From the NCBI GenBank assembly GCA_963713705.1, contig CAVQMY010000054.1:52314-116313 (forward strand): DNA of 64,000 nt, given 5' to 3'. This DNA comes from an uncultured Verrucomicrobiae bacterium. Lineage in GTDB: Bacteria > Verrucomicrobiota > Verrucomicrobiia > Palsa-1439. Shown in pieces: positions 1 to 19,103 of this stretch (the first letter of the stretch is position 1; each line of letters begins with the position of its first letter). The notes under the pieces were generated by a model. The model had not been told where the DNA came from. It did not search any database and was given only the letters and a program-made list of their open reading frames with translations. The position numbers were made by a program, and so were the translations under genes.

Positions 1-2500
1 GTAAAATTGTTGGGTGGCACTGGGCGGCACCGAATTGGTGACGGACACCATCCCGCCCGTCCCCAGTATGTTGCTGGCCACGGTTGACCAAGCTCCGGTT
101 ACGAGATCGCTCGTGCTCTCCACGGCGTAAGAGGCCCCGTTTGTCGTAACAAAACTGATAACCACATTACTCCCGTTGAGCACCTGGAAGGAACTGATAT
201 TGAAGGGACCTGCGGGAACTGACGATACGCATCCCGTGATGCTCATGCTGTTAAAATAGAAATCGTAATTTGCGCCTTGTCCGGCAAACTGGTTGTACAG
301 CGCGACGCTATTGATGGCGGAGCCGGGCGTGCCCCCCAGCGTGCCCGTGACCGTGGTGGAAACGGCCGGGTTGTTCCCCACGATCGCCAGCGAAAACGTA
401 TCCGGGCTGGTCAAGGTGAAGCTCAACGTCAATCCATTGTCCGTATACCCCAGGCTGGTATTGATCGGCGGCGCGGCCGGATTGGTGAAGATTTGATACG
501 CACCGATCCCGCCACCGAGATACGAAAACTCAAAGCGCTCGCCATCGTTCTTGTTGGCGGTGTCGTTGCCGGTACGCAGGATCCAGCCCACGGCACCGCC
601 CCCGGAGTTGACATACCCGTTGTCCATCGAGATGTTAAATGACTGGCCGACGCCCAACGAACCTTCCGCGAAGCTCCGACAGGCCACGGCTGTGCCCTGA
701 GACCCGTTGGTATTGGCATACAATCCCCACGATTTGCCGTTGACATCGATTCCCAAGGAGGGGATGACGCCGTTGCTGGTGGATGAGCCGATGAAGAAAC
801 CTGCATTGGACGAGTTACTCGTCGGACTCATGGTCCACGCACCAAAACCATATCCCCCGTTCAATCCGCTGGACCAGGCTAATGGGTAGGCGTTGGTATA
901 GGCCGGGTCGTTCGCAGTATCCGAAGCAAGAATCCCGCAGGTTATGGATCCGGAACCTCCCACTTGAATCGATACATCCGCGATATTCACCGAATCAGCG
1001 TACCCGTCGTAAACGCTGTAGCGGAACGTGTCGGTGCCGGTGAAGCCGACCGCTGGGGTGTAGGAGAACGAGCCGTCCGCGTTTAACGTCAGTTGACCAT
1101 TCGTCGGACCGCTCACCAACACGGCCGAAAGTTGGATCCCGGGCTGGCCCAAGTTAATGTCCAAATCGTTGGCCAGCACCCCCGCAGCGCTGCTGACTGT
1201 CAGGGTCACTCCCGACGTGGTCGTGTACGCGTCCGCGACTGCCAGCGGCCCTCCCAGGTATTGTTGGAGCATTGGATTGATCCCAAAAGCCGCCTTCGTG
1301 TTCCACGCTGACCAGTCATTGGAAATGGTGGTGGTCGAACTGGTCTGAATATTCGGAGTGGACGGCCACGTGCCGACGGGGTCGTAGAGGCCCCAACCGT
1401 CCGGGGGAGAGCCGTGAATGGCTTTATACGACCAAACGGACCAGCTCATGTTGTTCGTATCGAACTGCTGAACAAAGTACGGCCAAGCGTTGGTTGTACC
1501 ATAACAATTGAACTCGCCGATGAGGCAGGGAACATTCCATGACTGATGGTTTTGGAAGTCGCTCACCTGCTTGTCGGCTTCCGCTTCCTCACCCGACAGG
1601 CTGTTGGTGCCCGGGTAGGAGTGCATCTCATAGACGACGTTGCTCCAGTTGTACTGCGCGGGATTTGGCAGAACGTCCCACTGCCAGTTTAATGACTCGG
1701 CGTTGGTGCCCGTGCCGGTCCATGTTCCCTCCATCATAATCATGTGATTGGTGTCAACCACTCGAACCGTCTGGTACAGGCTATTGTACGCGGACCAGAT
1801 CGCGGTTTGCGTCGGCGCGCCACTCGGCTCGTTGATGAGGTCGTAACCGGCCATGGCGGGGTTCCCCACGAAGTGGGCCGCGACATTGGACCAGATGACA
1901 GTCGTTTGGTTCTGGTCACTGCTACTCGTCCAGTACTGGTTCTGGTTCTGTTGCCCGGTGGATTCGCTGCTGTTCTGTCCACCGGGCACGCCGTGCAAGT
2001 CGATGATGGTGTACAGTCCGCGTTGCCAGGCATTGCTCACGACCCAATCCATCCGATCAAAGGCGTCGGCGCGCCACGTGCCACTCAACGTTTGGACATC
2101 CCCCCACCAGAACGGCATCCGGACGTAGTTCATGCCCATCGCCCGGATGTTGTCGAGGTCGTTGGTCGTAATCCACGTATATTGGTAGGTCCTGATCAAA
2201 CTTTGCTCGGTACTGACAGTGAACCGGGTGTCGAGTTCTTGAACAACAGAGTAATTGTCGCTCACAACCCCGGAGGCGTCCATCGGGCACATCCAGCCTT
2301 CCATAATGAGCCAGGTCCCCAGATTCACGCCGCGCAACTGGACCACGTCCCCTGTTCCGTGGCCATTACGAATGTTGATGCCATTGGCGACCAGAAAGGG
2401 ATCCGGATCGGCCGCCCGTCCTGCCGAAAGGAGCAGAACGCCCCACAGGCACGCGGCGGCAACTGCCACCGGCGAGAACGTTCGTCGCGAAGCGTTCATG
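1..2500 (-). CDS. Secreted GH5-family glycoside hydrolase (cellulase/beta-glycanase type) fused to a cadherin/VCBS-like domain, one copy of an uncharacterised ~230-aa GGYGF module and a ~75-aa terminal domain. The last few C-terminal residues lie outside the window.
   Basis: Absent from the ORF track because no stop lies in the window. My own minus-strand translation from ATG 2500-2498 is open to position 2. It gives MNASRRTFSPVAVAAACLWGVLLLSAGRA (signal peptide), GYDLINEPSG (GH5 acid/base NEP), CLIGEFN (nucleophile), GVLANDLD...LNADGSFSYTP...GTDTFRYSVYDG (cadherin/VCBS-like), then LNGGYGFGAWT...GERFEFSY...TGTLGGTPGSAINSVALY, ending ...PPSATQQFY at the edge. Confidence 0.8.
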
Positions 2501-2503
2501 ATA

Positions 2504-3127
2504 TCATTGTTGTCCCAACGTGATGGAGTTGGTCGGTTCAAGAAACGCGTCGTCAAGCCGGAGGGCTCCACCGCGAGTTCCGTCCACGGGCGATGGGGTC
2601 ACAATCACCAGCACTCGCAGCGTACCACTGTTCGCGGAACCGGACACGGTCAGCTTCTGCCAGTTGTCCGCTGGAAGATCAGCCACCTTGTACAGTTTGG
2701 AGGCGACTGCTTGCTGGCTCCCGTCCACGGTCGATTCCAGACGCAACTCGATGCTCACGGCGTCCTTGCTGGGATTCTTGGCTTTGTCCACGCTGACGTA
2801 AATGCCAAACGTGTACGACGCACCTGTGACCGCGCCGGCGACGTCTTGATAGACCCCGGAATCCCTCGCACTGGGAATTTCCCAATGATGGTAGCCGAGG
2901 ATGCAATGCCCGCTGTGCACCGGCGTCCAGCTTTCCTCGCGGTTGAACCAGTCGCCCCATCGGCTCCAACCTGCGGCCCGGTCCGGCGCATCGCCCGGAT
3001 CCTCAAATGACGGATTTGCGAGTTTCGGAGCCGTTGGCTCCTCCGCAATTGACACCTTCGCCAGCACGCTTTCCGCGGAGATCAAAAGACAACCTGCGGC
3101 GGCAAACCATTTTCCGAGACGATTCAT
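2504..3127 (-). CDS. Secreted carbohydrate-binding-module-like protein (CBM4/9/22-type jelly-roll pattern)
   Basis: Track ORF 2504..3250. The internal ATG at 3127 gives signal peptide MNRLGKWFAAAGCLLISAESVLA. The mature part starts NPSFEDPGD...AAGWSRWGDW. The stop lies 3 nt upstream of the GH5 start, suggesting one operon. Confidence 0.55.
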   Translation of the reverse strand: MNRLGKWFAAAGCLLISAESVLAKVSIAEEPTAPKLANPSFEDPGDAPDRAAGWSRWGDWFNREESWTPVHSGHCILGYHHWEIPSARDSGVYQDVAGAVTGASYTFGIYVSVDKAKNPSKDAVSIELRLESTVDGSQQAVASKLYKVADLPADNWQKLTVSGSANSGTLRVLVIVTPSPVDGTRGGALRLDDAFLEPTNSITLGQQ

Positions 3128-3168
3128 TTCGTTGCGCGCTTCTTTCTCGCCATAGAGTTTCCACCAAC

Positions 3169-3891
3169 CTAATGCCACCCGACGGTCCAGAACGGTGACC
3201 ATAGATTGTCTGCGGTAATGTTTGCAAAATATGTCCCGCTCGACACCCATTCTGCATGGCCGTCAACGTACCCGCAGTTGATCCCAGCGTGCGGAAGAAA
3301 GCCCGGTTGCCAGTTCGGAAACACCATGTCAGACAGCAGGGTTGCAGTGGAGGGATTGGCCACAACGCTGAGACGGCGACCTGGCGGCGTCCCACTGGAG
3401 GGCGAATTGAACTCGTCGGGATCATGACACGACTCGTAACTGTTGTACTGATAATCGCACGCGTTCGGTTGCAGCAGAAAATTACCGCCGTATACAGCCG
3501 GCAAGATCTGCGCATTCGGGCACTTGAAAACCTGGGTGATATGATTCGGCATGTTAGCGATCTGGGGACCAATGACATCCTGAAAATAGTTGGTTACCTG
3601 CCCTCCTGAGGGCTCATGGACGTACTGGGGCGATTCGTAACTCAAGACTATCCCAATCGGCAGTTCTTCATCGTTGTCATTCGCATACATGATACAGGCC
3701 ATCGTGATCTGCTTCACATTGTTCAAGCACTCGGCGCGTTTCGCCATCTGGCGCGCTTTCGCCAGCGCGGGCAACAGCATCCCCGCTAGGATCCCGATAA
3801 TGGCGATGACCACCAGCAATTCGATCAGCGTGAACCCTTCCCGACGATGCGAACTCGCCGGCCGGAATACCAATCGTGATGTGCCGCTCAT
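3169..3891 (-). CDS. DUF1559-type protein with prepilin-type N-terminal cleavage/methylation domain (PVC pseudopilin-like family)
   Basis: N-terminus ...[47 protein letters not shown]-terminal ...[16 protein letters not shown] resembles the H-X9-DG-type tail of DUF1559 proteins. Confidence 0.85.
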
Positions 3892-3928
3892 GTTCGATCT
3901 GCTCTGTGTGCGACCTTCATTGCCACAC

Positions 3929-5440
3929 CTAGATCACGCAATTCTCCTCGATTACCTTCGCGTACCAATCGGCGCTGAGTTTCGGGATTCTCTGAAGCGT
4001 CTGGTAATCGACGTGGACCATGCCAAATCGTTTCGCGTAACCCTCCGCCCATTCGTAGTTGTCCAGCAACGACCAGAGGAAATACCCGCGAACATCAAAC
4101 CCCTCACGGATGGCGCGATGCAGCGAGATCAGGTGATTTCTCAGATACTCGCGCCGGCCCAGGTCGTGGACTTCGCCACTTGGCAATACCTGGTCGACGT
4201 ACGGCGCGCCATTCTCGGTGATGTAGACCGTCTCCACGCCGTATACTTCGCGGGCGTGACGAATCCCCCAATACATGGCCTGGGGCACGATGTTTAGCCA
4301 CGAAATGTCCGCTTTGGGATACTGCGAAGGCAGTGCGATCCGTTCCGCCTCGCCGTTGGATCCCCGTCGCACGAATTCACCGAAGTAGACGTTCAAACCA
4401 AGAAAGTCCGTCTTCTGTGAAATCAATTCGAGATCGCCCGGTTCGACCTTCGGCGCATCGGCGCCCGCACGTTTGAGGAATGCGGCTGTATAGGATCCTC
4501 CATACAGCGGCCCCATCAGTTGTTCGGTTTCCCTTAGATATTCCGCTCGCGCCGCAGTGATATCGGCTGCGGTTTCCGTCACCGGCACAGGCACCGGTGG
4601 ATTGTGAACGAGCCCAACGCGCGACCGTTTGCCGCCCAGTTCGCGAACCGCTTCCACGGCATAACCGTGAGCCAGCAACGCGTGATGATAAATTTGATTG
4701 ATCACCGCGGCGGATTCCTTTGCTCCGGGCGCATCGCAACCGTGCAGGTAGCCGCAGGGCACAAACCGCAGGATCTCGTTCATCGACATCCAGTTCTTGA
4801 CCCGATCGCCCAGCCGCTGCACAACCAGTTGCGCGTACCGCCCAAACGCCTGTGGCGTGGCGCGGACGCGCCACCCCCCACGGTCTTCGAGCGCCTGCGG
4901 CAGGTCCCAATGATACAAGGTTATCCAGGGCGTGACACCGTTTTCCAACAGCGCGTCGATCAGTCGGTCATAGAAGTCCAGACCCTTGGGGTTCGGTGCG
5001 CCATCCCCCTGGGGGAAGATTCGCGGCCACGCCACCGATAGCCGATAGTTCGGGATGCCCAGGCGCCCCAGCAATGCCACGTCTTCGCGATACCGATGAT
5101 AATGGTCGCAAGCCACGGTCGGCGTGTCGATCTTCCGCACCCTGGCAAAGCGATCCCAAATCGATTCGCCCTTGCCGTCCTCGAACGCGGCCCCTTCGAT
5201 TTGCGCCGCCGCCGTTGCCACGCCCCACGCAAACGCTCGCGGGAAACCGTAGCTCCGGCGACGAAGGGCGCGACCGAGTTTGGAGGCGCCGGGGGGCGCG
5301 TTGGATCGCCTGACGGGGGCAACGACCGGTGGCGTCGTCAACTCCGGTTGCCGCAGGGTCGTCGAGCCGGACTGCGACGAGACCACCGCGTCGGCTGGGC
5401 CGGATGCCTGGCTCATCACTTGGCCTCCAATCGCACCCAC
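3929..5440 (-). CDS. GH1 family beta-glucosidase
   Basis: [19 protein letters not shown] near the N-terminus, WMSMNEI (acid/base NE) and [10 protein letters not shown] (nucleophile ITENG). There is a ~65-aa N-terminal extension, so the true start may be internal. Confidence 0.9.
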
Positions 5441-5591
5441 GCCATCGATGCCAACCCGCAGGCCAATGGAGGCGCAGCCACGCTGCGGTTCGCCAAGTCA
5501 TGAACGAGGTTTGGTTGTTCTTTGCTTGTCTTCTCACCCATCGTGACTGCGCTCCATAATCCCTGGTGACATCGACCGGTTTCCGAACGTC

Positions 5592-5607
5592 TTGGTATCG
5601 ATATCAT
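5592..5607. promoter_or_regulatory. Candidate LacI-type operator, 14/16 match to palindrome TTGGTATCGATACCAA
   Basis: TTGGTATCGATATCAT lies ~150 nt upstream of the GH1 operon start. It is related to the sites at 6088, 16116 and 19088. Confidence 0.5.
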
Positions 5608-5622
5608 ACCCCGACCAATCTG

Positions 5623-5938
5623 TCAAGCGTAATTGGCGACCCCAGACTGGCTGTCGAAGAGGACCATGTGGTCGCCCGTCCCGGAGACGGCCTGCTGCAC
5701 GCCCTGCAACACCCGGCCAAAATAATAAGCACCCAACGACCTGCGAAATGGGGTAATCATGCCCAGCAAAGACGTGCGATTGCTCATGAACTGGCGCGCC
5801 ATCATATTGATGCGACAATCGAGCTTCTTGGGCCCCACCAAGATCACCTTGCGGCTGGGTGCCGACACAAATCCCCTGTCCGACTGCGCCCGCGAAACCG
5901 TCATTATCGACATCCCCGTCGCGCGCGATATCATCCAT
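5623..5938 (-). pseudogene. Truncated LacI-family regulator (HTH plus the first ~60 aa of the sugar-binding core only)
   Basis: ORF 5623..5934 reads MISRATGMSIMTVSRA...ARQFMSNRTSLLGMITPF...YYFGRVLQGVQQAVSGTGDHMVLFDS. This aligns with the intact LacI at 10457..11629 (MGDIARETGLSPMTVSRV...ARQLRAQHTFQLGVVAPF...LGHILQGIQQVLTGTDYHIALFDS). It stops after ~103 aa with no LacI-like continuation in any frame. An alternative MDDIAR start lies in a neighbouring frame across a GCGCGCG tract. Confidence 0.6.
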
Positions 5939-6087
5939 CGCGCCCACTGTTTTTGGGTCGCTGGCGCTCATGTGACGCTGTCGATAATACATCTTGTACC
6001 GTGTTGTCAACGACTTGCAGCATATCGTTACCCCCTCGGATGATCCGGAAAAACGCGCGGAATTCCTTTGACAAACCGGGTGATCTT

Positions 6088-6103
6088 ATGGTATCGATAA
6101 CAC
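6088..6103. promoter_or_regulatory. Candidate LacI-type operator (13/16 match) overlapping a possible sigma70 promoter
   Basis: ATGGTATCGATAACAC lies 59-74 nt upstream of ATG 6162. TTGACA at 6069-6074 is followed by TATCGA after an 18-nt spacer. Confidence 0.45.
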
Positions 6104-6161
6104 AACGACGGGGATTTATGCCGGTTGGTAACATACTTTTCAACCCACAGGAGAAGCGTAC

Positions 6162-7901
6162 ATGAAGAGAGCATGTTTAGTCATCACCGCCATCGTTATG
6201 CTAGCCACTGCGGCCAGCGCCGCCAATGTCGCCTTCGACAGCGCCGCGGATCCAGCCTACTCCGGCGGATGGTCGGGTACCAACGGTGGCTATGGGTTCA
6301 CCGCGTGGACACTCGTCCCGCTGCCCTGCGCCAGTAACGGGTATTTCTACGTCAACGATGCCGTCAATGGCTGCAACCATACCGCTCCCGGCATCGATAC
6401 CTCCGGCGTCGCGTGGGGTATGTCGTCCGACACCAACAGTCTGTTTTGCAGCACGAATGACGTGCCACAAGTTGGCGCGGTCGCTTATCGCGGCTTCACC
6501 GGCGGCCGATTGAGCGTCGGTCAGACTTTCGAAATTTATGTTCAACACGGCAGCGTCGATGGCGGGCTCGGCATCGAGTTTCGCACCAGCACCGATATGT
6601 CGTCTCATAGCGCTGGCGAACGCCTCAACCTGTACCGCAGCCCCAACACAGACTGGTTGATCTGGGACAAAGATGCGGCGGCGACCAATGGCGCCGTCGA
6701 CACCGGTATGCCGTGGGACACTGCCGGCTACAAAGTTGACTTTACCCTGACCGGTGTGGATAGCTACTCTCTCACGATTTCCAATCTGGATCCGTCGACC
6801 AGCGTGGCTTCCGTCACCACGACCGGCACGTTGAATGGCGCGTCCGGTGCGGGACTCGATAGCGTTGCGCTGTACACCGAGAGTCCTTTCAGCTACTGCT
6901 ACCAAAACGTGTACTGGAACAGCATGAGCGTGACCGGCCCCGCTCAACCGAACATCGCCAACGAAGCTTCTGATAGCGCCGCCGACGTCGCCTACACAAA
7001 CTCCTACCCCAACACCTGGGCCACTGGCCTCAACGGCGGCTATGGGTTCAGTCCGTGGACCATGTATGTGCTCGCGGGCGACGGGTACTTCTACGCGAAT
7101 GATTGCACCCAGGGCTGCTGTGGGGCCAGCAACCCCCGCACCTTGCCGGGGATCGACACCACGGGGCCAAATGGGCCCCAAGCCTGGGGAATCTCGGCGG
7201 ACACGAATACCGTCGCCGCACCTTCTCAAGCCCAAGTGTTCGCCACGCGCGGATTCAACGGCGGGTCATTGGCCGTGGGCCAACTCTTTGAGATGCGGGT
7301 CCAGAATTCATACGTCGATGGCGGCGCGGTCGGAATCGACTTCCGCACAGGCAACAGCCAGTCGGCCTACAACAGCGGGGAACGTCTGAGCCTGTACTTC
7401 AACGGCAGTCCGCACATTTACGATGGTCATGCGAACCCGTCGTTGTTGGGATACGACACCGGCGGCTTCCAGGTTGACTTCAATCTGACCGGCATCGATA
7501 CGTACTCGCTCACCTTGTCGAACCTGAGCAGCGGCGCCTCAACCAACGTCACGGGAACCCTCTCCGGCACGGCCGGCTCGGGAATCGACAGCATCGCGGT
7601 GTATAACCTTCAAAACCTGTCTGATGCATGGCACAACTTTTACGCCAACAGCCTGCGCGTGACGAGCACCGTCGCTCCCGTCATCAAGTCGGCCAGGTTG
7701 TTCCAGGGCACCAATGCGGTGATCTCCTTCCAGTCCATCTCCAATGCCGTGTATTACCTTCAGCGAGCCCCCGATATGTCCGGCACCAACTGGTCCACCG
7801 TGCTCACCAACGTGACCGGCAATGGGGGGATACTCGACCTCACTAATTCGCTGCCCGGGCCTGCCCAGAAACAGTTCTATCGCGTCGGCAAGCCCTATTG
7901 A
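6162..7901 (+). CDS. Secreted protein made of two tandem copies of the uncharacterised GGYGF module plus the same terminal ...QFYR domain as the GH5 enzyme
   Basis: Signal peptide MKRACLVITAIVMLATAASA. Repeat 1 spans aa 24-259 and repeat 2 aa 268-502 (shared anchors NGGYGF.(A/P)WT, PGIDT.G, GERL.LY, YSLT.SNL, TGTL.G..G.G.DS.A.Y). The C-terminus ...NWSTVLTNVTGNGGILDLTNSLPGPAQKQFYRVGKPY parallels the GH5 end. Confidence 0.75.
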   Translation: MKRACLVITAIVMLATAASAANVAFDSAADPAYSGGWSGTNGGYGFTAWTLVPLPCASNGYFYVNDAVNGCNHTAPGIDTSGVAWGMSSDTNSLFCSTNDVPQVGAVAYRGFTGGRLSVGQTFEIYVQHGSVDGGLGIEFRTSTDMSSHSAGERLNLYRSPNTDWLIWDKDAAATNGAVDTGMPWDTAGYKVDFTLTGVDSYSLTISNLDPSTSVASVTTTGTLNGASGAGLDSVALYTESPFSYCYQNVYWNSMSVTGPAQPNIANEASDSAADVAYTNSYPNTWATGLNGGYGFSPWTMYVLAGDGYFYANDCTQGCCGASNPRTLPGIDTTGPNGPQAWGISADTNTVAAPSQAQVFATRGFNGGSLAVGQLFEMRVQNSYVDGGAVGIDFRTGNSQSAYNSGERLSLYFNGSPHIYDGHANPSLLGYDTGGFQVDFNLTGIDTYSLTLSNLSSGASTNVTGTLSGTAGSGIDSIAVYNLQNLSDAWHNFYANSLRVTSTVAPVIKSARLFQGTNAVISFQSISNAVYYLQRAPDMSGTNWSTVLTNVTGNGGILDLTNSLPGPAQKQFYRVGKPY

Positions 7902-7949: not shown

Positions 7950-9265
7950 CTAGCAGGCTACTAAAGAAGTCTGCATTACGGCAGTGGTTTGGGTGATGGC
8001 GGTTTGGGAGGGCTGTAACGATGCCCTGTCCTGAGTGTCGTGCGGGTTGAGCCAACAGTTCGACATAATCGGTCGGTTCATGAACTGGTCTCCAAACGAA
8101 CCAGTCGCACCAAGTTGTACGCGCTGACCGTCACCAGGACCTCTTGGGCAATCTTCCACCGACCTACGAAGCGGGTTCGGGCCAGCCGGCCCACCGTCTT
8201 GCACCAGCCGAAGATTTCTTCGACCCGTTTGCGGAGGCGTTGGCTGACCCGGTAGCGCGCCGTGCGCATCCGCTGCCGTGCTCGGTGGCGGGCCCGCCCG
8301 GCCGCATCCCGGGCCACGAGGCGCCCCGGCGAATCGGCACGTGCGGTTCGATCCCGGTGCGCTCCAACTGCGCCAGAAACTTGCCGTCCTGGTAACCGCC
8401 ATCCAGGCCCAGCGTTCGCGGATGCAGTCGCTGTCGACGTTTGGCGCGTCGCACCAACGCCCGCGCTTGCCGCCGCTCGGCGTGTCCGTCCGCGGCATCC
8501 ACGGCGACGCCGACGCACAGACCGTGACGGTTCTCCATTAACACGTGCGCGCTGTGGCACAACTGCGCCTCCTTGCCCAGGCCCTTGCGCGCCAAGCGGG
8601 CTTGGGGATCGGTGGCACTCTGGTGGGTGTCGTTGGTGCGACGCTGCCCATGAAAGTTCACCGTCGGATTGCCCGGATCGTCGGGCGGTTCGCTGGACGC
8701 GGCGCCGTCCTTGGGCTGCACGCTCTTCAGGCTGGCCCACGAGCGTAGCAACGTGCCGTCCACCGTAAAGTGTTCGTCACTGACGTAGCCTTCCAGCATC
8801 GCTTGGCGCACCAGCGCATCGAAGAACGCCTGCACCAATCCATGCTCGGCAAAACGCTCACGGTTGACGCTGAACACTTCCGGCGTCCACGCGCGTTGCT
8901 CCAACGGCAAGTCCACGAACCACCGATACAGTTGGTTGAACTCGATATGCTCCATCAGGGCGATCTCACTACGGATCGAGTACAGCGCTTGCAGCAGCAG
9001 GGCTTTGAGCAATTGCTCCGGCGGAATGGAGGGCCGCCCCAGCGAACTATAGGCGCGGGTAAACTGCCGATTCATCTGGGCCAACAGTTCGTCACAGCGG
9101 CGCTTGATGGGCCGCAATGGATGGTTCGGGGGCACCCGCTGCTCCAACGAAACGACCACAAACAACGACTCTTGCCGATCAATCTGTCCACGCATGCGAA
9201 ACCCTCCCTGTTCGCCACGTCAGTATAACCGGCCCGTCAACCCGACTTCTTTAGTGCCCTGCTAG
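7950..9265 (-). mobile_element. IS5-family insertion sequence, copy 1 (1316 bp)
   Basis: Terminal inverted repeats CTAGCAGGCTACTAAAGAAGT (7950-7970) and ACTTCTTTAGTGCCCTGCTAG (9245-9265). CTAG is present at both ends. It is nearly identical to the copy at 46927..48243. Confidence 0.85.
8078..9195 (-). pseudogene. IS5-family DDE transposase (DUF772 N-terminus) split across two frames
   Basis: ORF 8164..9195 carries MRGQIDRQESLFVV...HFTVDGTLLRSW...LGLDGGYQDGKF (the two D residues). ORF 8078..8740 carries the C-terminal ...YRVSQRLRKRVEEIFGWCKTVGRLARTRFVGRWKIAQEVLVTVSAYNLVRL (E motif) in the -1 frame. The junction is at GCCGGGGCGC (G4 here, G5 in copy 2). Confidence 0.8.
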
Positions 9266-10457
9266 TGCTCCGTCAAAGTTGATTTGCGGTACGGAGGAAG
9301 GCATTCTGGGGCACGTCAAGGAGGTCGTATGCCACAGAAGCCTGTTGTGCAGTTGGGCGATGGGGATCGCCGACAACTGCGTTCGTTGATTCAGGCGGGC
9401 CGCGCCCCGGCCCGCACACTCACTCACGCCCGCATTCTGCTGAAGGCCGATCAAGAACTGTCCGATGAGGAGATTGCCGACGGACTGGAGATCAGCACGG
9501 ACACCGTATCGCGCGTGCGCCAACGGTTCGTCCAGCAGGGACTGGCGGTGGCCCTGCATCGGCGGCCCCAGCCCCCGCGCCCTGACAAGCGCAAGCTCGA
9601 TGGTGATGGGCAAGCGCACTTGATCGCGCTGGCCTGTTCCGCTCCGCCAGCCGGGCACGCCCGCTGGACATTACGTCTGTTGGCGGAGCGGTTCGTGGAG
9701 TTGGAATACGCGGGGAGTCTCTCCCACGAGACGGTGCGCACGGCACTCAAAAAAACGACCTGAAGCCGTGGCGCCAACAGCGCTGGTGTATCCCGCCCGA
9801 GGCCAACGGGGAGTTTGTCTGGCGGATGGAGGATGTACTGGCTGTGTACAAACGGCCCTACGATCCACGGCGGCCCGTGGTCTGTCTGGATGAGAGCAGT
9901 CGGCAGTTGCTGGCGGACACCCGCGCGCCGCAGGCGGTCGCGCCCGGACGTGCGACGCGGCAGGATTATGAGTATGAGCGCTGCGGCACGCGCAACCTGT
10001 TTATGGTGTTTGAGCCGTTGGCCGGCTGGCGGACGGTGCCGGTCACCGAGCGGCGCACCAAGCAAGACTGGGCGCATTTGATCAAAGATCTGCTGGAGGG
10101 TCGCTACGCGCAGGTCGAGAAGGTCGTGCTGGTGCAGGACAACCTGAACACGCACACGCCCGCGTCCTTGTACGAGACGTTTGGCCCGGCCGAGGCGCGC
10201 CGGTTAACGGAGAAGTTAGAGTGGCATTATACGCCCAAGCACGGCTCGTGGCTGAATGTGGCGGAGTGCGAGTTCAGCGCCCTGACGCGGGCGTTGCCCG
10301 ATCGGTTGGCGGGCGAACAAGCCTTGAGACGCGCCGTGGGGGCGTGGGAGAACGAGCGTAACAACGCCACCGTGCGGGTCAATTGGCGGTTCAGCACTGT
10401 CGACGCACGCATTAAGCTCAAACACCTCTACCCAGCAATTGAACTTTGACGGAGCAC
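9265..10457 (+). mobile_element. IS630-family insertion sequence (1193 bp) flanked by a TA duplication
   Basis: IRs GTGCTCCGTCAAAGTT (9265-9280) and AACTTTGACGGAGCAC (10442-10457) are 16/16 identical and extend to 22/25. TA lies on both sides (9263-9264 and 10458-10459). Confidence 0.85.
9329..10449 (+). CDS. IS630-family transposase, apparently made by a -1 programmed frameshift (orfA 9329..9763, orfB frame to 10449)
   Basis: GGAGG precedes ATG 9329. The orfA HTH region ends ...TVRTALKKTT*. An A7 run at 9749-9755 lets a -1 slip read ...KKNDLKPWRQQRWCIPPEANGEFVWRMEDVLAVY... into the DDE part (VCLDESS...VLVQDNLNTH...WLNVAECEF). Confidence 0.75.
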
Positions 10458-11629
10458 TAGTTCAACCGCGAAGGCTTTGGCTGCTTGGACATGGCCGCGA
10501 TCGATGGGTGTTCCCGACCCGGCGGAGCCGTTGACGAACGCGTCACCAATCGGGCCGGCAACCGCTTGTGCAAAACTCCGGGAGGCTCGGCCGCGTTGAG
10601 AACCTCCAGCAGATAGCGGGCGGCGACCCGTCCGAGATCCATCATCGGTTGCGCGACGGTTGTCAGAGCCGGCACAAACTCCGCCGAGGCTTCGAGATCA
10701 TCGAAGCCCCCGACCGAAAGATCCTCAGGAACTTTGAGTCCCAGAACCCGAGCGGCGTCAATGACCCCGTAAGCCATTTGATCGTTCGCGGCGAAGATTG
10801 CCGTCGGACGTTGGCTCTTGGCCAGCAAACTCATGGACAGTTGGAAAGCCTTCCTGGTTTCGTATTCGCCCTGGACGATCCATTCATCCACGACCTTGAG
10901 ACGATGCTTGGCCAGGGTATTCCGGAAGCCCAATTCGCGTTGGGATGCGTCCCGCAGGTCATTCCGGCCCCCGATGAACCCAATTCTCGTGTGACCAAGC
11001 TGTATGATGTGTTGCGTCATCGCGCAAGCGCCGCCGTAGTTGTCAACATCGACATAACTAATACCATGTTGGCCGAGAGAACTGCCCACAACGATAATCG
11101 GCATCTGCAGATTGGCAAACGTCTCGGGAAATCGATCGCTCAACTCAGGGGCCACGACGATCAGCCCACCGACGCGTCGCTCATGGCAAAGGTTGACACA
11201 TTTTCTGACGTCGTTAAAGTCCTCCGAAAGGCTGTCAAACAGAGCAATATGGTAGTCCGTCCCCGTCAACACTTGCTGGATCCCCTGCAAAATGTGTCCG
11301 AGATAAACCGTGCCGATTAATCCTTGAAATGGGGCCACAACGCCCAACTGGAATGTGTGCTGGGCGCGGAGCTGGCGCGCAATGATGTCCACATGGTAAT
11401 TCAACCGCTTGGCCGTCGCCAGCACCCGCTTCCGCTTTGCCTCTGAGACGGCGCCGCGGTTGCTGAGCACCCGGGAAACAGTCATCGGCGAAAGACCGGT
11501 CTCGCGCGCAATGTCGCCCATTGTCACCTTGCCCGAGTCTCTCATCAGGGAGTCAGTAGCACTCGACCTATCCCATGTCAACGCTTCTTCAGCACCGGAG
11601 CGGTTTGTGGTCGTAAGGCTCATCATCAT
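10457..11629 (-). CDS. LacI-family transcriptional regulator
   Basis: MGDIARETGLSPMTVSRVLSN... HTH followed by a periplasmic-binding-protein-like core. The likely true start is the ATG at 11521. The stop TAG overlaps the CTAG insertion site of the IS elements. Confidence 0.85.
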   Translation of the reverse strand: MMMSLTTTNRSGAEEALTWDRSSATDSLMRDSGKVTMGDIARETGLSPMTVSRVLSNRGAVSEAKRKRVLATAKRLNYHVDIIARQLRAQHTFQLGVVAPFQGLIGTVYLGHILQGIQQVLTGTDYHIALFDSLSEDFNDVRKCVNLCHERRVGGLIVVAPELSDRFPETFANLQMPIIVVGSSLGQHGISYVDVDNYGGACAMTQHIIQLGHTRIGFIGGRNDLRDASQRELGFRNTLAKHRLKVVDEWIVQGEYETRKAFQLSMSLLAKSQRPTAIFAANDQMAYGVIDAARVLGLKVPEDLSVGGFDDLEASAEFVPALTTVAQPMMDLGRVAARYLLEVLNAAEPPGVLHKRLPARLVTRSSTAPPGREHPSIAAMSKQPKPSRLN

Positions 11630-11837
11630 TGCGATTGCCGCACCGCCCCACCCGTCGCCGGCCTGATAAGGTCCGTTGCTCGAATCGCCCGTTCAGATCG
11701 GTGGAACAACTCCAATTACATTGCCGGCGAGTAAAGCCGGAGAGGAGGCCGATGGCGGCAGCAAGGATGGCTTCACCCGCCGAGCCGGCGAGCTTGGCAG
11801 CAGAGGCCGGCAGCTTCAGACCGTCTTGAGTCCATCC

Positions 11838-12758: not shown

Positions 12759-13643
12759 TTACTCTCCCCCGTAATAGATGAGCCGGCGCGTCGAGCGCGT
12801 GGCCAGCCATGTCAGCGCCAGAATAATCAGAAACAGGATCCAGGCCATCGCGCACGCGTAGCCCATCTGCTGGTAGTCGAAAGCGTTCTGGTAGAGATAC
12901 ACCGTGTAGAACAGCGCCGACCGGTTCGGCCCGCCACCGCCGAGCATGATGTACGCCTGCGCAAACACCTGCAGCGAACCGATGATGCCCATGATGAGGT
13001 TGAAATAGATGACCGGCGAGATCATCGGCACCGTGATATGGCGGAATTTCACCCACGGATTCGCCCCGTCGATTTCGGCGGACTCGTACAACGAGCGGGG
13101 CACGTCCTGTAGCGCGGCGAGGTAGATGACCATCGTGTTCCCGCAACCCCAGATCGCCATGAGGATCAACGATGGCTTGGTCCACTTTTCATCGGCCAAC
13201 CATTGCGGGCCTTTGAGGCCCAGCACGTGCAACCCGTGATTGAGCAGACCGAAGTTGCCATTGAGGATCCAGAGCCAGACCATCGAACTGGCGACGACCG
13301 GAACGAGCGACGGCAGGAAATAGATCGTGCGGAAAACGGAACGCCCTTTCACGTCCTGATTGAGCATCACGGCGATCAATAGCGCGATCACCAGGCAGAA
13401 CGGCAGCGACAGGAATGCGTAGTACAACGTGTTGTACAGTGATTTCCAGAACACGGTGTCGGTGACCATGTCCCGGTAGTTCAGCGAGCCGACCCAGACC
13501 GGTTTCGTCAGCACGTCGTAATCGCAGAAGGAGTAATAAATGGACGCGCACACGGGAAACACGGTGAACACCAGAAAGCCGATGATCCACGGGCTGATAA
13601 ACGCCAGCCCAATCCGCAAATTGCGTTTCTCACCGCGCGTCAT
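12759..13643 (-). CDS. Carbohydrate ABC transporter permease (MalF/UgpA-like)
   Basis: LYESAEIDGANPWVKFRHITVPMISPVIYFNL. The gene lies 4 nt from the downstream permease. Confidence 0.85.
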   Translation of the reverse strand: MTRGEKRNLRIGLAFISPWIIGFLVFTVFPVCASIYYSFCDYDVLTKPVWVGSLNYRDMVTDTVFWKSLYNTLYYAFLSLPFCLVIALLIAVMLNQDVKGRSVFRTIYFLPSLVPVVASSMVWLWILNGNFGLLNHGLHVLGLKGPQWLADEKWTKPSLILMAIWGCGNTMVIYLAALQDVPRSLYESAEIDGANPWVKFRHITVPMISPVIYFNLIMGIIGSLQVFAQAYIMLGGGGPNRSALFYTVYLYQNAFDYQQMGYACAMAWILFLIILALTWLATRSTRRLIYYGGE

Positions 13644-14907
13644 AGTTGCTCCACTCTTTGAGACGCCCGTCCTTGACCATGTCCCAGCGGGTCAGCATCC
13701 GATCCAGTTTCCACTGCACCCGCGACTGCACCGTATCGAGCGCTTGTTCCGGAGTAGCCTCCAGCGCCATGATGCGGTCGATCGCCACGTTCATCTCGTC
13801 GTTGTACGCGCCCCAGACCGACAACCGCGGCGCATACTGCGCATCCGGGCTCTTCGCCAGTTCCATAAACGTCCTGATGTACGGGTTCGGATGTTGCTTG
13901 TAAAACTCATCACTCACTTTGATCAGCGGACTGAACTTGCGCTGGCCGAGGCACAGCTTTTCCATCGGGCCCTGCTGGTTGACGTAGCGGATGAACTCGA
14001 ACGCCTCCCGCGGATGGCGCGCGCCTTTCGGGATCGCCAGCACGTCGGCATCCACCAGCGTGACCAGCGGGCAGTTCGCGGGATCCTTCGCGGGAAACGG
14101 CGCCGCGCCCCACTCCATCTGCGGCGCGTACTTGTTGATGAAGTTGTACATCCACACGCCCTGCAACGTCATGGCAATCTGGTCGGAGAAGAACGGGTTC
14201 TGCGGTGATTGGAAATTCCCAAACGACGCGCCGAAACTGCGCCGGTTGTCGACACCGTACTTCTCCGACTGCGATTGGAGCCAGTGGAAGGCCTGGATCA
14301 TCTCGGGGCTGTTGGCGGTGATATGCCGCTGGCCGTCCCACAGTTTCCCGCCGAACCAAAACACCCACATCGGCATCCACCACCCCGGCTGTTGCGGGTC
14401 ATGACCGACCTGCACCAGCTTGAAGTCCTTGGCCTTCTTCTCCGTGTCCGTCAGGTCCGGGTAGCGCACCCGCACCACCTTGCCATCCCGCTTGATTTCG
14501 ACAATGGTCAGCCGCTCAGACATGCTTTCGAGTTCGTCCAAGCTGCGCGGCGGCCGGTCGGGATCGAGTCCCGCCTCGCGAAACAGTTTCTTGTTCCAGT
14601 GCAATGCCAGCGAGGTCGGCGTGCTCGGCAACGCCCAGATGAACCCGTGATGGCGGCACAAATCCCAGTACACGGGAATGTAATCCTCGCGCTTGATGCC
14701 CGCTTCCTGGATCATCCTGTCGAGCGGCGTCAGCGCTCCCTTCTCGGAAAAGCCAGTAACGGTGGCCGGCCAGATCCCGGCAACATCGGGTGGGTCCCCG
14801 CCGGCCGTGGCCAGCATCAGCTTGCGCTCGATTTCCCCAATCCCCGTGAGTTTCCGGACGAAAATACGGTTCTGGGAATTGTTGAAGTCATCGACGACGG
14901 CCTGCAT
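13630..14907 (-). CDS. ABC transporter extracellular solute-binding protein (family 1). The lipoprotein signal appears displaced into another frame upstream (to ATG 15061).
   Basis: SBP-like sequence runs throughout. The frame is open upstream (..CGTPTPTNGRVEISYWEKWTGFEDDAMQ) but has no start. The adjacent frame encodes MGFWNRSGATSAGMAIVCTVLAFTGL. Deleting one nt near 14985 would give ...VLAFTGCGTPTP, a good lipobox. Confidence 0.75.
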   Translation of the reverse strand: MQAVVDDFNNSQNRIFVRKLTGIGEIERKLMLATAGGDPPDVAGIWPATVTGFSEKGALTPLDRMIQEAGIKREDYIPVYWDLCRHHGFIWALPSTPTSLALHWNKKLFREAGLDPDRPPRSLDELESMSERLTIVEIKRDGKVVRVRYPDLTDTEKKAKDFKLVQVGHDPQQPGWWMPMWVFWFGGKLWDGQRHITANSPEMIQAFHWLQSQSEKYGVDNRRSFGASFGNFQSPQNPFFSDQIAMTLQGVWMYNFINKYAPQMEWGAAPFPAKDPANCPLVTLVDADVLAIPKGARHPREAFEFIRYVNQQGPMEKLCLGQRKFSPLIKVSDEFYKQHPNPYIRTFMELAKSPDAQYAPRLSVWGAYNDEMNVAIDRIMALEATPEQALDTVQSRVQWKLDRMLTRWDMVKDGRLKEWSNYDAR

Positions 14908-16115: not shown

Positions 16116-16131
16116 TTGGTATCGATACCAA
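16116..16131. promoter_or_regulatory. Perfect 16-bp palindrome TTGGTATCGATACCAA, candidate LacI-type operator
   Basis: Perfectly self-complementary with a central CG. It lies 64-79 nt upstream of the PEP-CTERM gene start at 16052. Confidence 0.55.
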
Positions 16132-16402: not shown

Positions 16403-19007
16403 TTAGCCGCGATTCTTCACATTCTTCGCGCGGCGGCTGGCGCCATAGGCCGTGCCAAGACCGCACAGCCACAGGAGCACGACGCTGGGTTCAGGCACCG
16501 AGGAGACTTGCTGCAATTCCAATTGATGGATCTGGCCGTTGCCCAGCAGGGTGATGTCCGCTGATGAGAAATCGTTCGAATTGACGAAATACAGCACCGT
16601 GTTGTTGCTGATGATCAGGTCCGAGGAACCGAACAACGAAAGATCGTTCACGAACAGTGCGTTCGTGTCGCCGCTGGCGCCACCGATATCGGCGGACGCG
16701 CTGAGTTCGAGAATACTGTTGGTGCCCGCATTGCCGATTTCCAGGTTGTCCAGGGCGAAGTTGTTATCGAACCCGGTGACGGCGGCGAAGCTGGAAACGA
16801 GCTGCACGCCGGTGGCCGTCGGGCTTGGGGTGCCGACGAAGCCGCCGGTGAGTTTGAGTCCCGCGGTGAAGAATTGTTGCGTGAGCGTGGTGCCGACGGC
16901 CGAGGCGTTGTCAAAGATGAACTTGGTGCCGCTGGCGCCGCTGCCGCCGGGGGTGGTGTTCAGTGTGTTGTAGGATGTGTTCTGGGTGCTTTGGTTGACG
17001 AAATTGCTCTTGAAGAGGTACACGTCGCCAGCCGAAGCGCTGATGTAGCCGCTGGAGGTGACGGTGTAGGTGTTGTTGAACACGTTGGTTGTCGGGTCGG
17101 TAATCCACGCGCCGGAGTTGACCACCGTGCCGTTGAACGTGCCGACGCTGCCCACGGAAGCGAACGTGCCGCCGTTGGCGACGTTGAAGGCGCCGTTAAT
17201 GATGATGGTCGCGGTGTTGGCGGTGACGACGCCGCCCGAGTTGTTGTTGAGCGTGGTGGCGCCGAGCACCAGCGGCGTCCGGCTGTTGGCGAAAATCGTG
17301 CCGTCGTTGTTGAGCTGCGACCAACTACCGTCAATCGTGCCGCTGCCCTGAATGAGGCCGCCGCTGGCATTGGCCAATTTCGTCGACGGAGTCCCGCCAT
17401 CGACAGAAACGGAGCTGACAACGCCGCCGCTCATTTGCACGCTGCCAAAGTTCGTCACGGCGCCGCTATTGTTCCAAGCGTTTTGGGTGCGGGCAACCGC
17501 CAGGGTGCCGTTGTTGGCCAGCATAATCGTGCCGTCCACGGCGTTCTGCACGCCGCCCAGATTGGCCGCATCGTAGGAATTCAGCACGAGCGTGCCGTTG
17601 GTGGCGGTTATGACGCCGTGATTGATGATGGCATGGTTGACATTCCCGAAGCCAAAGCCGGTCTGCAGAGTGCCGTTGCCAGTGATGGCGCCGGCCGCGC
17701 TGTTGGTGAATTCACCGCTCGGGTCATTGCCGGTATTGTTGGCCATGAGAACCGTGCCGCCCAACAGGAGGAACGTGCCTTGATTGTCCTGATAGGCTCC
17801 GCCACCGACAACCGTTGAGGAAAGCGTCATGTTGGCGCCGGAATCAATCTTCACCGTCCCTTGAATTGCACTGCCGGGCACGTACGCAAGACCGAGGTCA
17901 ACGTCGTTGCCCGAGGAGATTTCCAACGTGCCACCGGAGTTGACGATCCACGCTCCGCCAAAGCCGACGCCGGGGGCGACGTTGCCGTTGATGCGCATCG
18001 TGCCGCCGCTAACGGTCTTAAACGTGCCAAACGATAACGTGCTGCCGCTGGACGTGAACGTTTGCTGATTGCCGGCGATGGTCTGAAAAAGGTTCAGAAC
18101 TCCGTTGCTGGCGATCACGCTGCCGGGCATCGCCCTGTCGGACGCGCATGGCGATCGTGCCGTCACCCTGAATGACGCCATAGTTGTCCATGCCGCGGTC
18201 GGTCGCCTGATTGCCGTTGAAATATACTGTGATGCCGCCGCCATTGAGCATCACCGTACCGTTGATTTGGGGATTGTTGCTATCCAAGGCGCCCCACGCT
18301 GCGTCGTTTCGGTCCAGCGCGAACGCGGCGCCGGAGTTGATCGTCAACGTGGCACCGCTGTTAAGCTGAAAGCCATTCGCGGAGGTGTTGCCACCGGTTT
18401 CCACCCATAGCAATCCTGACTGGACCTGGATTTGGCCGCCGTTGGTCATCACGAGGCCGTTGGCCTGGTTGAATATGTTCATATTCAGTGTGCCGCCATT
18501 CCTGGAGATTACCGTGCCGCCGAACAACGCGTTGCCGATGTCGGTATTCTGAATATTGATGCTGCCGTTATCCAGAACCAGTTGGCCGCCAGCATCCAGG
18601 TGGAATTGTTGGTAGGCGGTCAACGAGCCGCCTCCCGTGATGTCCAGCTTTCCGTGGTTCTGGACCCACATGTAGTCGCCATCCACGAAATAGGCATTCC
18701 CGTCCGAGCCGATGATCATCGTGTTCGTGCCCGTGTTGCTCGGATCGCTATTGTTGATGGTGAATCCGGAGCCGCTGTAGAAGGTCCACCGGCTGTTGAG
18801 ATAGTAAATGTTCTCCGTGCCGGTCGCGACCGAGATTGTACCCTGGCCGTAATTACCGTCGCCGGCCGGATTGTTGTTCCAATTGGCACTGCTGGTCCAG
18901 TCATTGGAGCCGGAACTCATGATCCACGAGGTATCGCCGAATGCTGACGTTGTGGATGCGGCACTAGCCAGCGTGACAATTATGGAAGCAAAAAAACTCG
19001 CCTTCAT
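16403..19007 (-). pseudogene. ~870-aa beta-helix surface protein (autotransporter-associated beta-strand-repeat type) with a PEP-CTERM anchor, interrupted by one frame change near 18130 (or an assembly indel)
   Basis: ORF 18018..19070 has signal peptide MKASFFASIIVTLASAASTTSAFG and G/N/T-rich repeats. It ends ...YGVIQGDGTIAM and continues in another frame (ORF 16403..18244) as ...DRAMPGSVIASNGVLNLFQ... through to ...SSVPEPSVVLLWLCGLGTAYGASRRAK. Confidence 0.7.
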
Positions 19008-19068
19008 GAAAATAGTGTTCTCCCCGCCCAATACGAAAACCAACCTTTTCATGCCATGTTCTCCCTTC

Positions 19069-19091
19069 AAAAACCCCAGCCGTTTGGCTGG
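19069..19091 (-). terminator. Rho-independent-terminator-like hairpin on the minus strand
   Basis: The minus strand reads CCAGCC-AAAC-GGCTGG-GG-TTTTT. It lies just upstream of the beta-helix gene and overlaps the operator-like site. Confidence 0.3.
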
Positions 19092-19103
19092 TATCGTTAC
19101 CAG
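19088..19103. promoter_or_regulatory. Candidate LacI-type operator (13/16 match)
   Basis: CTGGTATCGTTACCAG lies 36-96 nt upstream of the possible starts of the beta-helix PEP-CTERM gene. Confidence 0.45.

Follow-up and report, generated by a model that had tools for sequence, protein, structure and literature searches.

We analyzed a stretch of 64,000 nucleotides from an uncultured Verrucomicrobiae bacterium (GenBank assembly GCA_963713705.1, contig CAVQMY010000054.1, positions 52,314 to 116,313; here called the window) and found three copies of a protein module of ~230 amino acids (aa), one at the C terminus of a GH5 enzyme and a tandem pair in a secreted protein of 579 aa. The module is very probably a non-catalytic extracellular binding or adhesion domain. 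Its sequence family had so far lacked annotation, and its predicted fold belongs to a well-known class. In both proteins it is followed by a short C-terminal domain, here named the FYR domain. The module copies and the two genes that carry them are located as follows.

238-927, minus strand: module copy 1, aa 525-754 of the GH5 protein; matched over its full length (1-213) by the family hidden Markov model (HMM; 224 bits, E 9e-68) and by BLASTP with the other copies
6231-6932, plus strand: module copy 2 (module A), aa 24-257 of the 579-aa protein; family HMM 188 bits, E 9e-57
6966-7661, plus strand: module copy 3 (module B, the modelled copy), aa 269-500 of the 579-aa protein; family HMM 175 bits, E 7e-53
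1-2499, minus strand: GH5 enzyme gene; 833 of about 841 codons inside the window, 3' end beyond the window start
6162-7901, plus strand: open reading frame (ORF) of the 579-aa secreted protein; signal peptide aa 1-20 (ending ...AASA, followed by AN), module A, module B, FYR domain

The threefold repeat is real. BLASTP aligned aa 525-833 of the GH5 protein with aa 269-573 of the 579-aa protein (E 5.6e-55, 40% identity) and aa 527-765 with aa 26-263 (E 2.8e-29, 36% identity), and modules A and B matched each other at E 4e-58 and 46% identity. An earlier reading of the DNA from its letters and ORFs alone (here called the sequence-only reading) had proposed this arrangement of a GH5 C terminus plus a tandem pair, which the pairwise comparisons (36-46% identity, E 3e-29 to 4e-58) and the family HMM envelopes bear out. 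The three-copy alignment has 68 invariant columns and recovers the anchors that had been pointed out, namely DPAY, NGGYGF..WT, GID, R.F..G.L.VGQ.F, GER, F.LT..D..SL, TGTL.G, and Y.NS. Across the 64-kb window, the family HMM found exactly three module copies and two FYR domains, and no further copy of either.

The reading frame of the GH5 gene (minus strand, 2598..1) is open to the window edge, and its ATG at 2499 yields 833 aa. The stop codon lies outside the window. Three contigs of Verrucomicrobiia metagenome-assembled genomes (MAGs; L008-L010) are colinear with window positions 1-6997 at 92-94% identity, and the orthologue on L009 terminates in ...QQFYRGRGLVP directly before its stop codon. 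From the N to the C terminus, the protein is composed of a signal peptide, a GH5 catalytic domain, a cadherin-like Ig domain, the module, and the FYR domain. Two of these parts have Pfam matches, as given below, and the last ~310 aa have zero matches in Pfam or NCBIfam.

1423-2181, minus strand: GH5 catalytic domain (aa 107-359); Pfam Cellulase, E 1.6e-30
985-1248, minus strand: cadherin-like/Big_9 Ig domain (aa 418-505); Pfam Big_9 5e-14, Cadherin_5 8e-13

The PDB sequences closest to the catalytic domain are exo-beta-1,3-glucanases (E 6e-20 to 1e-15). The label "cellulase-type" that the enzyme had been given thus agrees with its Pfam name only, and not with its closest solved relatives. A GH5-cadherin orthologue on another MAG contig (L001, 15680-18229) is 62% identical to the window enzyme over aa 19-514, and the similarity ends precisely at the start of the module. 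In the module's place, the L001 protein harbors a concanavalin A (ConA)-like region that weakly matches DUF1349 (27 bits, under the cutoff), and this is followed by TSP3 repeats and an FYR-type tail. The pair is a clean accessory-domain swap, and since the module is replaced by a different ConA-like region, it behaves as a swappable accessory unit. Its architectural slot on the GH5 is the one occupied by carbohydrate-binding modules (CBMs) of family 6/35 in enzymes of sister loci. Among the window copies, copy 1 alone forms a contiguous, independently folding, non-catalytic part of a carbohydrate-active enzyme (CAZyme).

The 579-aa protein carries a Sec-type signal peptide, has zero Pfam or NCBIfam matches, and gave no record in an exact look-up of its sequence. 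A relative of 603 aa from Verrucomicrobiae (P0192) is 50% identical over the full length and shows the same tandem plus FYR architecture, and FYR-ending relatives with two and three modules also exist.

When 45 diverse module sequences were compared with Pfam and NCBIfam, no model matched, even at an E value of ≤1. This includes Lectin_legB, Gal-bind_lectin, Laminin_G, and DUF1349 of Pfam as well as the choice-of-anchor models of NCBIfam. A profile of the three copies retrieved nothing better than E 2.9 from the PDB sequences, and among the CBM families represented in Pfam, none matched by sequence. The module therefore stands outside the named Pfam families, including the CBM families represented there, as had been supposed. 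Also, literature searches on PEP-CTERM together with Verrucomicrobia and lectin or carbohydrate binding, and on choice-of-anchor domains, turned up no description of it.

A fold could be predicted nonetheless. The AlphaFold2 model of module B, built from a 115-sequence alignment, is all-beta with 15 strands (pLDDT 87.9, pTM 0.88). Foldseek gave 96 matches to this model in the PDB at E≤1e-3, and the best 50 of the 96 are mostly carbohydrate-binding or carbohydrate-active proteins of the ConA-like lectin/glucanase fold. The top match is the C-terminal domain of an Akkermansia GH181 sialidase (E 2e-5, TMq 0.47); others include calreticulin, legume lectins, galectin-10, galectin-8, Emp46p, CBM11 (6r31), and a PL7 alginate lyase. 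Matches to ConA-like members had a probability of 0.99-1.0, E values of 2e-5 to 4e-4, and a root mean square deviation of 5-11 Å. A search of BFVD returned the same fold class, including phage tail proteins, lectins, a viral alginate lyase, and proteins named ConA-like lectin/glucanase. The model thus places the module in the ConA-like lectin/glucanase fold, at the level of the predicted fold and not of family membership, and this lectin- or CBM-like fold agrees with the glycan-binding nature that the sequence-only reading had guessed.

The same jelly roll is found in glycoside hydrolases (GHs) and polysaccharide lyases (PLs) such as GH16, GH12, and PL7, and the module might be the catalytic domain of a new GH or PL family. 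The Foldseek matches include PL7 alginate lyase 1vav (TMq 0.45) besides the viral alginate lyase, a lyase mechanism could in principle make use of an invariant Arg together with conserved Tyr and Asn residues, and the motif ...ALYNQ... superficially resembles the YNQ motif of PL7. Against this stands the conservation pattern, which was counted over 225 non-redundant module copies with a mutual identity of <60%. The most conserved positions are an Arg (99%), a Trp (98%), and the two Gly of the NGGxGFxxW loop (95%), followed by the Asn of the last strand (92%), a Tyr (91%), and further aromatic residues and glycines. No Glu conserved at ≥60%, no conserved acidic pair, and no conserved His were found in the 225 copies; Asp is only partly conserved (D3 76%, DNG Asp 68%, D153 61%), and the Tyr of ALYN is conserved at <60%. 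Catalysis relies on the Glu/Asp pair of ExDxxE in GH16 and on R/Q/H/Y in PL7, and none of the jelly-roll GH/PL signatures (GH16, GH12, PL7) is present in the 225 copies. The candidate of a PL7-like lyase, raised by the YNQ-like motif and the match to 1vav, was rejected in view of the poor conservation of this Tyr and of architectures that are typical of binding modules.

The size and architectures of the family bear on the same question. A HMMER scan of 1.84 billion representatives (clusters at 50% identity) with a trimmed 45-sequence profile identified 2,614 members at E≤1e-3, 2,070 at E≤1e-10, and 859 at E≤1e-30. Among the first 120 relatives, 87 consist of a signal peptide, one module, and PEP-CTERM (PF07589), a C-terminal (V/I)PEP motif with a hydrophobic helix and a basic cluster; another 14 consist of a signal peptide, one module, and an FYR domain. 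Two to eight full module copies are present in 78 of the 139 top representatives, with protein lengths of up to 3,913 aa. In 57 of the 102 proteins of ≥500 aa within this set, the first module directly follows the signal peptide and so forms the distal tip of an Ig/PKD/HYR/FG-GAP/SprB stalk that has an FYR or type IX secretion system (T9SS) tail. Pfam domains co-occurring with the module are PKD_6, Ig, HYR, SprB, PA14, FG-GAP, LTD, and TSP3. Tandem sets of two to eight copies and a place at the N-terminal tips of adhesin-like giants are atypical for catalytic domains, and the majority of members are PEP-CTERM proteins of 260 aa encoded outside CAZyme loci; a catalytic role is therefore very unlikely. 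Taken together, the pattern of conserved residues, the occurrence in tandem, and the place at the end of long Ig-type stalks argue for a ligand-binding or adhesive domain and not a catalytic one.

These architectures also speak to the idea that the module serves only as a structural spacer or stalk and has no specific ligand, its conservation reflecting folding constraints only. Many conserved positions are indeed Gly or belong to the hydrophobic core, and the module is found among repetitive Ig-like domains. However, a jelly roll of 230 aa would be atypical as a spacer, the usual position is terminal and not between domains, and 101 of the first 120 relatives comprise nothing but a single module between a signal peptide and a short tail. 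Furthermore, the exposed-type R, W, Y, and N residues and the NGGxGFxxW loop are 91-99% conserved across sequences that are <60% identical. A mere spacer thus appears highly improbable.

Enzyme fusions are rarer in the family and comprise the GH5 of the window, Alpha-amylase/GH13 in three proteins, Peptidase_S8/S53, and GSDH. The view of the module as a CBM-like part of CAZymes hence applies to the GH5 copy and the GH13 fusions, but the bulk of the family is made up of stand-alone PEP-CTERM proteins and giant adhesin-like proteins of the Ig/PKD/HYR/FG-GAP type. For this reason, "lectin-like adhesion/binding module" is a safer label than "CBM", and the earlier guess of a glycan-binding module was reasonable but too narrow. 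The members with a name are from Verrucomicrobiae, Kiritimatiellia, and Bacteroidota/Saprospiraceae (as "T9SS type A sorting domain-containing protein"), with a further one, an S53 peptidase, from an Alphaproteobacteria MAG. Por_Secre_tail was detected in 9 of 78 scanned module proteins, the carriers being Bacteroidota proteins. With members in Bacteroidota, some of them with T9SS tails, a restriction of the module to the Planctomycetes-Verrucomicrobia-Chlamydiae (PVC) bacteria does not hold.

We then consider the locus. The 579-aa gene is divergent from a minus-strand string of four genes, of which the last is the GH5 gene and the first three are the following.

3929-5440, minus strand: GH1 beta-glucosidase, first gene of the string; Pfam Glyco_hydro_1 8.7e-139, PDB beta-glucosidases E 1e-140
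3169-3891, minus strand: prepilin-type N-methyl/DUF1559 protein; Pfam N_methyl 2.9e-9, SBP_bac_10 8e-6; a similar gene in L004 and L022
2504-3130, minus strand: small secreted CBM_4_9-like protein; Pfam CBM_4_9 E 0.003, below cutoff

Related arrangements were found on other contigs. The MAG contig L001 (925 kb) carries a LacI gene, P0002 (one module plus FYR), GH1, a GH5 with CBM6/35, an orthologue of the CBM4_9-like protein, and the GH5-cadherin described above. On L022, a LacI gene is accompanied by the adjacent P0016 and P0008 (each one module plus PEP-CTERM), a CBM4_9-like gene, GH1, a GH5 with CBM6, and N_methyl. The LacI/GH1/GH5/module locus is thus conserved in three lineages. Furthermore, an FYR-type member on L004 adjoins a LacI gene and a giant GH16/SKN1 protein, and another on L019 adjoins GH30, GH3 with CBM6, and an ABC sugar transporter. 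The CBM4_9-like orthologues measure 202 aa in L001 (15015-15623), 199 aa in L004 (within 10437-11801), and 192 aa in L022 (8828-9406). These small proteins share the motif NPSFE...AAGW.RWG.W..RE..W and recur in GH loci across lineages together with the N_methyl/DUF1559 protein (12354-13049 in L022).

The intergenic region and the sequence beyond the 579-aa gene contain putative regulatory and transport functions as well as mobile elements.

6089-6102: LacI-type operator TGGTATCGATAACA, 60-73 nt upstream of the ATG of the 579-aa gene and 15 nt downstream of a TTGACA hexamer
5593-5606: LacI-type operator TGGTATCGATATCA, upstream of the minus-strand GH1...GH5 string
5644-5931, minus strand: LacI gene remnant, equivalent to aa 14-109 only; tblastn 45% identity to intact paralogues, E 6e-26, with a weak Pfam LacI helix-turn-helix match
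10457-11629, minus strand: full-length LacI-family regulator; Pfam LacI and Peripla_BP, 67% identical to the LacI beside P0002 in L001
11838-14907, minus strand: ABC sugar-uptake genes (SBP_bac_1 solute-binding protein, BPD_transp_1 permeases; Pfam, components at 12759-14907), directly beside the intact LacI
8164-9195, minus strand: IS5-like transposase (DUF772 and DDE_Tnp_1; Pfam)
9284-10449, plus strand: IS630-like two-ORF element (HTH_32, then DDE_3; Pfam), the ORFs probably joined by a frameshift
19325-20734, plus strand: further DDE_Tnp_1 transposase (Pfam)

The palindrome upstream of the 579-aa gene, which had caught attention as operator-like, fits the LacI-family operator form TGnnAnCGnTnnCA. 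With ≤2 mismatches, the motif TGGTATCGATAWCA occurs at four sites of the window (5593-5606, 6089-6102, 16117-16130, and 19089-19102), giving 8 strand-matches versus 0.23 expected by chance in 64 kb. The four sites define a putative small regulon, and two minus-strand ORFs without Pfam match, 16403-18244 (613 aa) and 18018-19070 (350 aa), are flanked by those at 16117 and 19089. A layout of TTGACA-N14/15-TG(G/T)TA(T/C)CG(A/T)TAAC lies upstream of module genes in the window, L001, and L022. The L022 site (TGTTACCGATAACC) was missed at ≤1 mismatch and was found by eye and alignment; in L004, no operator match was found.

The elements typical of a LacI-regulated sugar-utilization locus are present, i.e., operators, a nearby LacI gene, GH1 and GH5 genes, and an ABC transporter, with the repressor linked to the operators by motif. 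The LacI protein encoded at 10457-11629 is the probable repressor of the window operators, and the ABC genes are likely the uptake arm of the same regulon. Two insertion sequence (IS) elements separate the 579-aa gene from the intact LacI gene; the counterparts of these two genes are direct neighbors in L001 and L022. The DNA of the LacI remnant is 92-94% identical in L008-L010, except for a small indel at ~5870-5942.

The FYR domains of the two window proteins have the following positions.

1-204, minus strand: FYR domain of the GH5 protein (aa 766-833), cut by the window edge; BLASTP, HMM, and the L009 C terminus
7680-7898, plus strand: FYR domain of the 579-aa protein (aa 507-579), ending ...QFYRVGKPY; BLASTP, HMM, and AlphaFold2

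The domain comprises about 70-75 aa. A common C-terminal domain had been noticed in both proteins, and the tails are indeed 41% identical (BLASTP E 7e-18), the GH5 protein showing only ...QQFY inside the window. In relatives, the domain is nearly always at the extreme C terminus, terminates in FYR(V/I/L)xxxP, and often follows TSP3 repeats. No Pfam or NCBIfam model exists for it, as examined with 45 FYR sequences. Its AlphaFold2 model is a six-strand sandwich (pLDDT 84), for which Foldseek found Fn3 domains as best PDB matches (TM up to 0.7, all E≥0.02); Pfam fn3 was unmatched. The FYR domain is thus predicted to be a small Fn3-like sandwich, itself unannotated.

Neither Por_Secre_tail (PF18962/TIGR04183) nor any other T9SS sorting-domain model was matched by the 45 FYR sequences, and a single T9SS-named NCBIfam match, to a surface endonuclease family, was at chance level (E 0.059). 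No T9SS C-terminal domain appears among the best 50 Foldseek matches of the FYR model. Moreover, the host of the window FYR domains belongs to the Verrucomicrobiia, whereas T9SS sorting is defined for Bacteroidota with a T9SS. The NCBIfam model "Amuc_1099 family pilus-like system protein", hit by 6 of the 45 sequences in the FYR alignment, was discarded since it covers the preceding TSP3-like repeat only (24-42 bits, cutoff 50). Searches of a word-indexed protein collection with the FYR domain alone or with a 12-sequence FYR alignment returned only near-identical matches or short fragments. Many verrucomicrobial protein fragments (P0123-P0159) carry the FYR domain without the module.

All three window copies of the module lack PEP-CTERM, which takes the place of FYR on P0008 and P0016 in the orthologous locus L022. 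Within the LacI/GH1/GH5 locus, the tail of the module proteins is hence FYR in two lineages and PEP-CTERM in the third. This suggests that the FYR domain may serve in retention or anchoring at the cell surface. One member, P0017, at first appeared to have an N-terminal FYR domain. On its contig (L021), many short adjacent ORFs hold split domains (Pro-kuma_activ, Peptidase_S8, and GSDH halves), which suggests assembly frameshift errors, with P0017 being a fragment of a larger S53 peptidase-FYR-module protein. As a piece of a frameshift-broken gene, it was dropped as a disproof of a C-terminal role.

Based on these findings, we propose the following model for the locus. The module on the GH5 would act as a CBM that keeps a secreted, exo-beta-1,3-glucanase-like enzyme on its substrate. 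The tandem 579-aa protein would be a bivalent surface or secreted glycan-binding protein and capture beta-glucan for degradation and for uptake via the neighboring ABC sugar transporter. Its promoter appears to be overlapped by the LacI-type operator, and as the same motif precedes the GH1...GH5 string, we propose that the protein is made together with the enzymes, i.e., that the gene is co-regulated with the string. The FYR domain may hold both proteins at the cell surface. On balance, we favor a glycan as the ligand of the module in this locus, with a CBM on the GH5 and a bivalent glycan-capture protein as the 579-aa product.

The ligand is probably a beta-glucan. The exo-beta-1,3-glucanase-like GH5, the GH1 beta-glucosidase, and the GH16, GH30, and GH3 neighbors of family members point less to cellulose in particular than to beta-1,3/1,6-linked or mixed beta-glucans. 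Neither cellulose nor xyloglucan is a likelier ligand than beta-1,3/1,6-glucan; as a specific assignment, the latter is tentative and less likely than not. A still wider reading would combine a new CBM family for beta-1,3/1,6-glucans, the 579-aa protein as the verrucomicrobial counterpart of surface glycan-binding proteins (SGBPs), and FYR as an undescribed retention or sorting domain of Verrucomicrobiota that replaces PEP-CTERM and T9SS C-terminal domains. As a whole, this combination is unlikely.

The module may otherwise serve adhesion or assembly, with a ligand that is not a dietary glycan: a protein, the bacterium's own envelope or exopolysaccharide, or the module itself, in which case the tandem protein could scaffold the GH5 in a cohesin/dockerin-like manner. 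This would suit the prevalence of PEP-CTERM and giant adhesin-like proteins in the family, the many loci without CAZymes, the S53 peptidase and GSDH among the fusion partners, and the pairing of one enzyme-borne copy with a two-copy non-enzyme protein in this locus. PEP-CTERM is linked to exopolysaccharide-producing bacteria via the exosortase system, and oligomerization through the sheets is common in domains with a lectin fold, for example legume lectins and galectins. However, the closest relatives occur repeatedly in LacI/GH1/GH5, GH16, and GH30/GH3 loci. Also, the L001 GH5 has another ConA-like region in the module's place and the second L001 GH5 a CBM6/35, which fits substrate targeting. 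We therefore consider adhesion or assembly rather unlikely as the role in this locus.

Several observations weigh against glycan binding as proposed here. The structural likeness is at the fold level only (TM 0.35-0.5, identity 9-16%, E about 1e-5), enzymes and protein-binding domains share the ConA-like fold, and none of the homologues has a known ligand. Most members are found outside CAZyme loci, and distant PEP-CTERM members on L003, L006, L023, and L024 have unrelated neighbors. With protease and GSDH fusion partners and such neighbors, the family as a whole may bind varied or non-glycan ligands, and the mixed enzyme partners GH5 and GH13 argue against one common polysaccharide ligand. 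In the locus itself, the operators are tied to the regulator by motif only, and the LacI gene adjoining the locus is a remnant. Finally, an internal FYR-like domain in P0168, P0176, and the S53 peptidase fusions weakens the surface-anchoring role of FYR.

Verrucomicrobiota are major polysaccharide degraders of soil, peat, and water. To our knowledge, they are without SusC/D, the machinery by which Bacteroidota capture glycans, and the way in which they hold substrates at their surface is poorly understood. The module is a testable candidate component of glycan capture in this phylum and a candidate new CBM family. With this work, an unannotated lectin-fold family of about 2,600 clusters is defined, and its definition would give a name to thousands of "hypothetical" PEP-CTERM and giant adhesin-like proteins of PVC bacteria and Bacteroidota. 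The FYR tail is a second unannotated domain and deserves its own family model and census. Secreted bacterial proteins regularly yield new beta-sandwich binding modules, and the result is useful rather than conceptually surprising.

Among known systems, the best structural match to the module is GH181 Amuc_1547 of Akkermansia muciniphila (PDB 8hls, 8axs), with ~190 aligned columns. The C-terminal domain of GH181 was described as a "CBM-like" beta-sandwich that is unique to GH181, distantly galectin-like, and only putatively glycan-binding (PMC10067855). Like this domain, the GH5-borne module is a predicted C-terminal, non-catalytic, galectin-like beta-sandwich on a secreted verrucomicrobial GH. 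In contrast to it, the module is larger (~230 aa), occurs mostly outside enzymes, and has no sequence relationship to it (14% identity).

With the ConA-like lectins, i.e., legume lectins, galectins, calreticulin, and the L-type lectins Emp46p/ERGIC-53, the module shares the predicted two-sheet jelly roll, an extracellular location, and conserved aromatic and polar residues suited to sugar binding. Unlike in legume lectins, their metal- and sugar-binding loop motifs are unrecognizable in the module, and we know of no counterpart to its N-terminal signature D.A.D.AY...W..G.NGG.GF..W. Similarly, the module resembles beta-sandwich CBMs (CBM11, CBM4/9, CBM6/35) as a discrete non-catalytic fold placed C-terminally on a GH5, in the same slot. 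It differs from the CBMs of CAZy in having no Pfam CBM match, in its length (~230 aa versus 120-170 aa for most CBMs), in its occurrence mostly outside CAZymes, and in that its binding is a prediction.

"Choice-of-anchor" is the name that NCBIfam gives to domains of surface proteins whose C-terminal sorting signals vary. Like these domains, the module occurs with PEP-CTERM, T9SS type A (Por_Secre_tail), or FYR tails. Finally, the 579-aa protein may be compared by analogy with the SusE/F-like SGBPs of polysaccharide utilization loci (PULs) in Bacteroidota, as it consists of non-enzymatic, secreted tandem beta-sandwiches and is encoded beside GHs and a sugar transporter. It has neither a sequence relationship to SGBPs nor a lipoprotein signal, and, unlike Bacteroidota PULs with their SusC/D pair, the locus in the window relies on genes for a LacI regulator and an ABC transporter.

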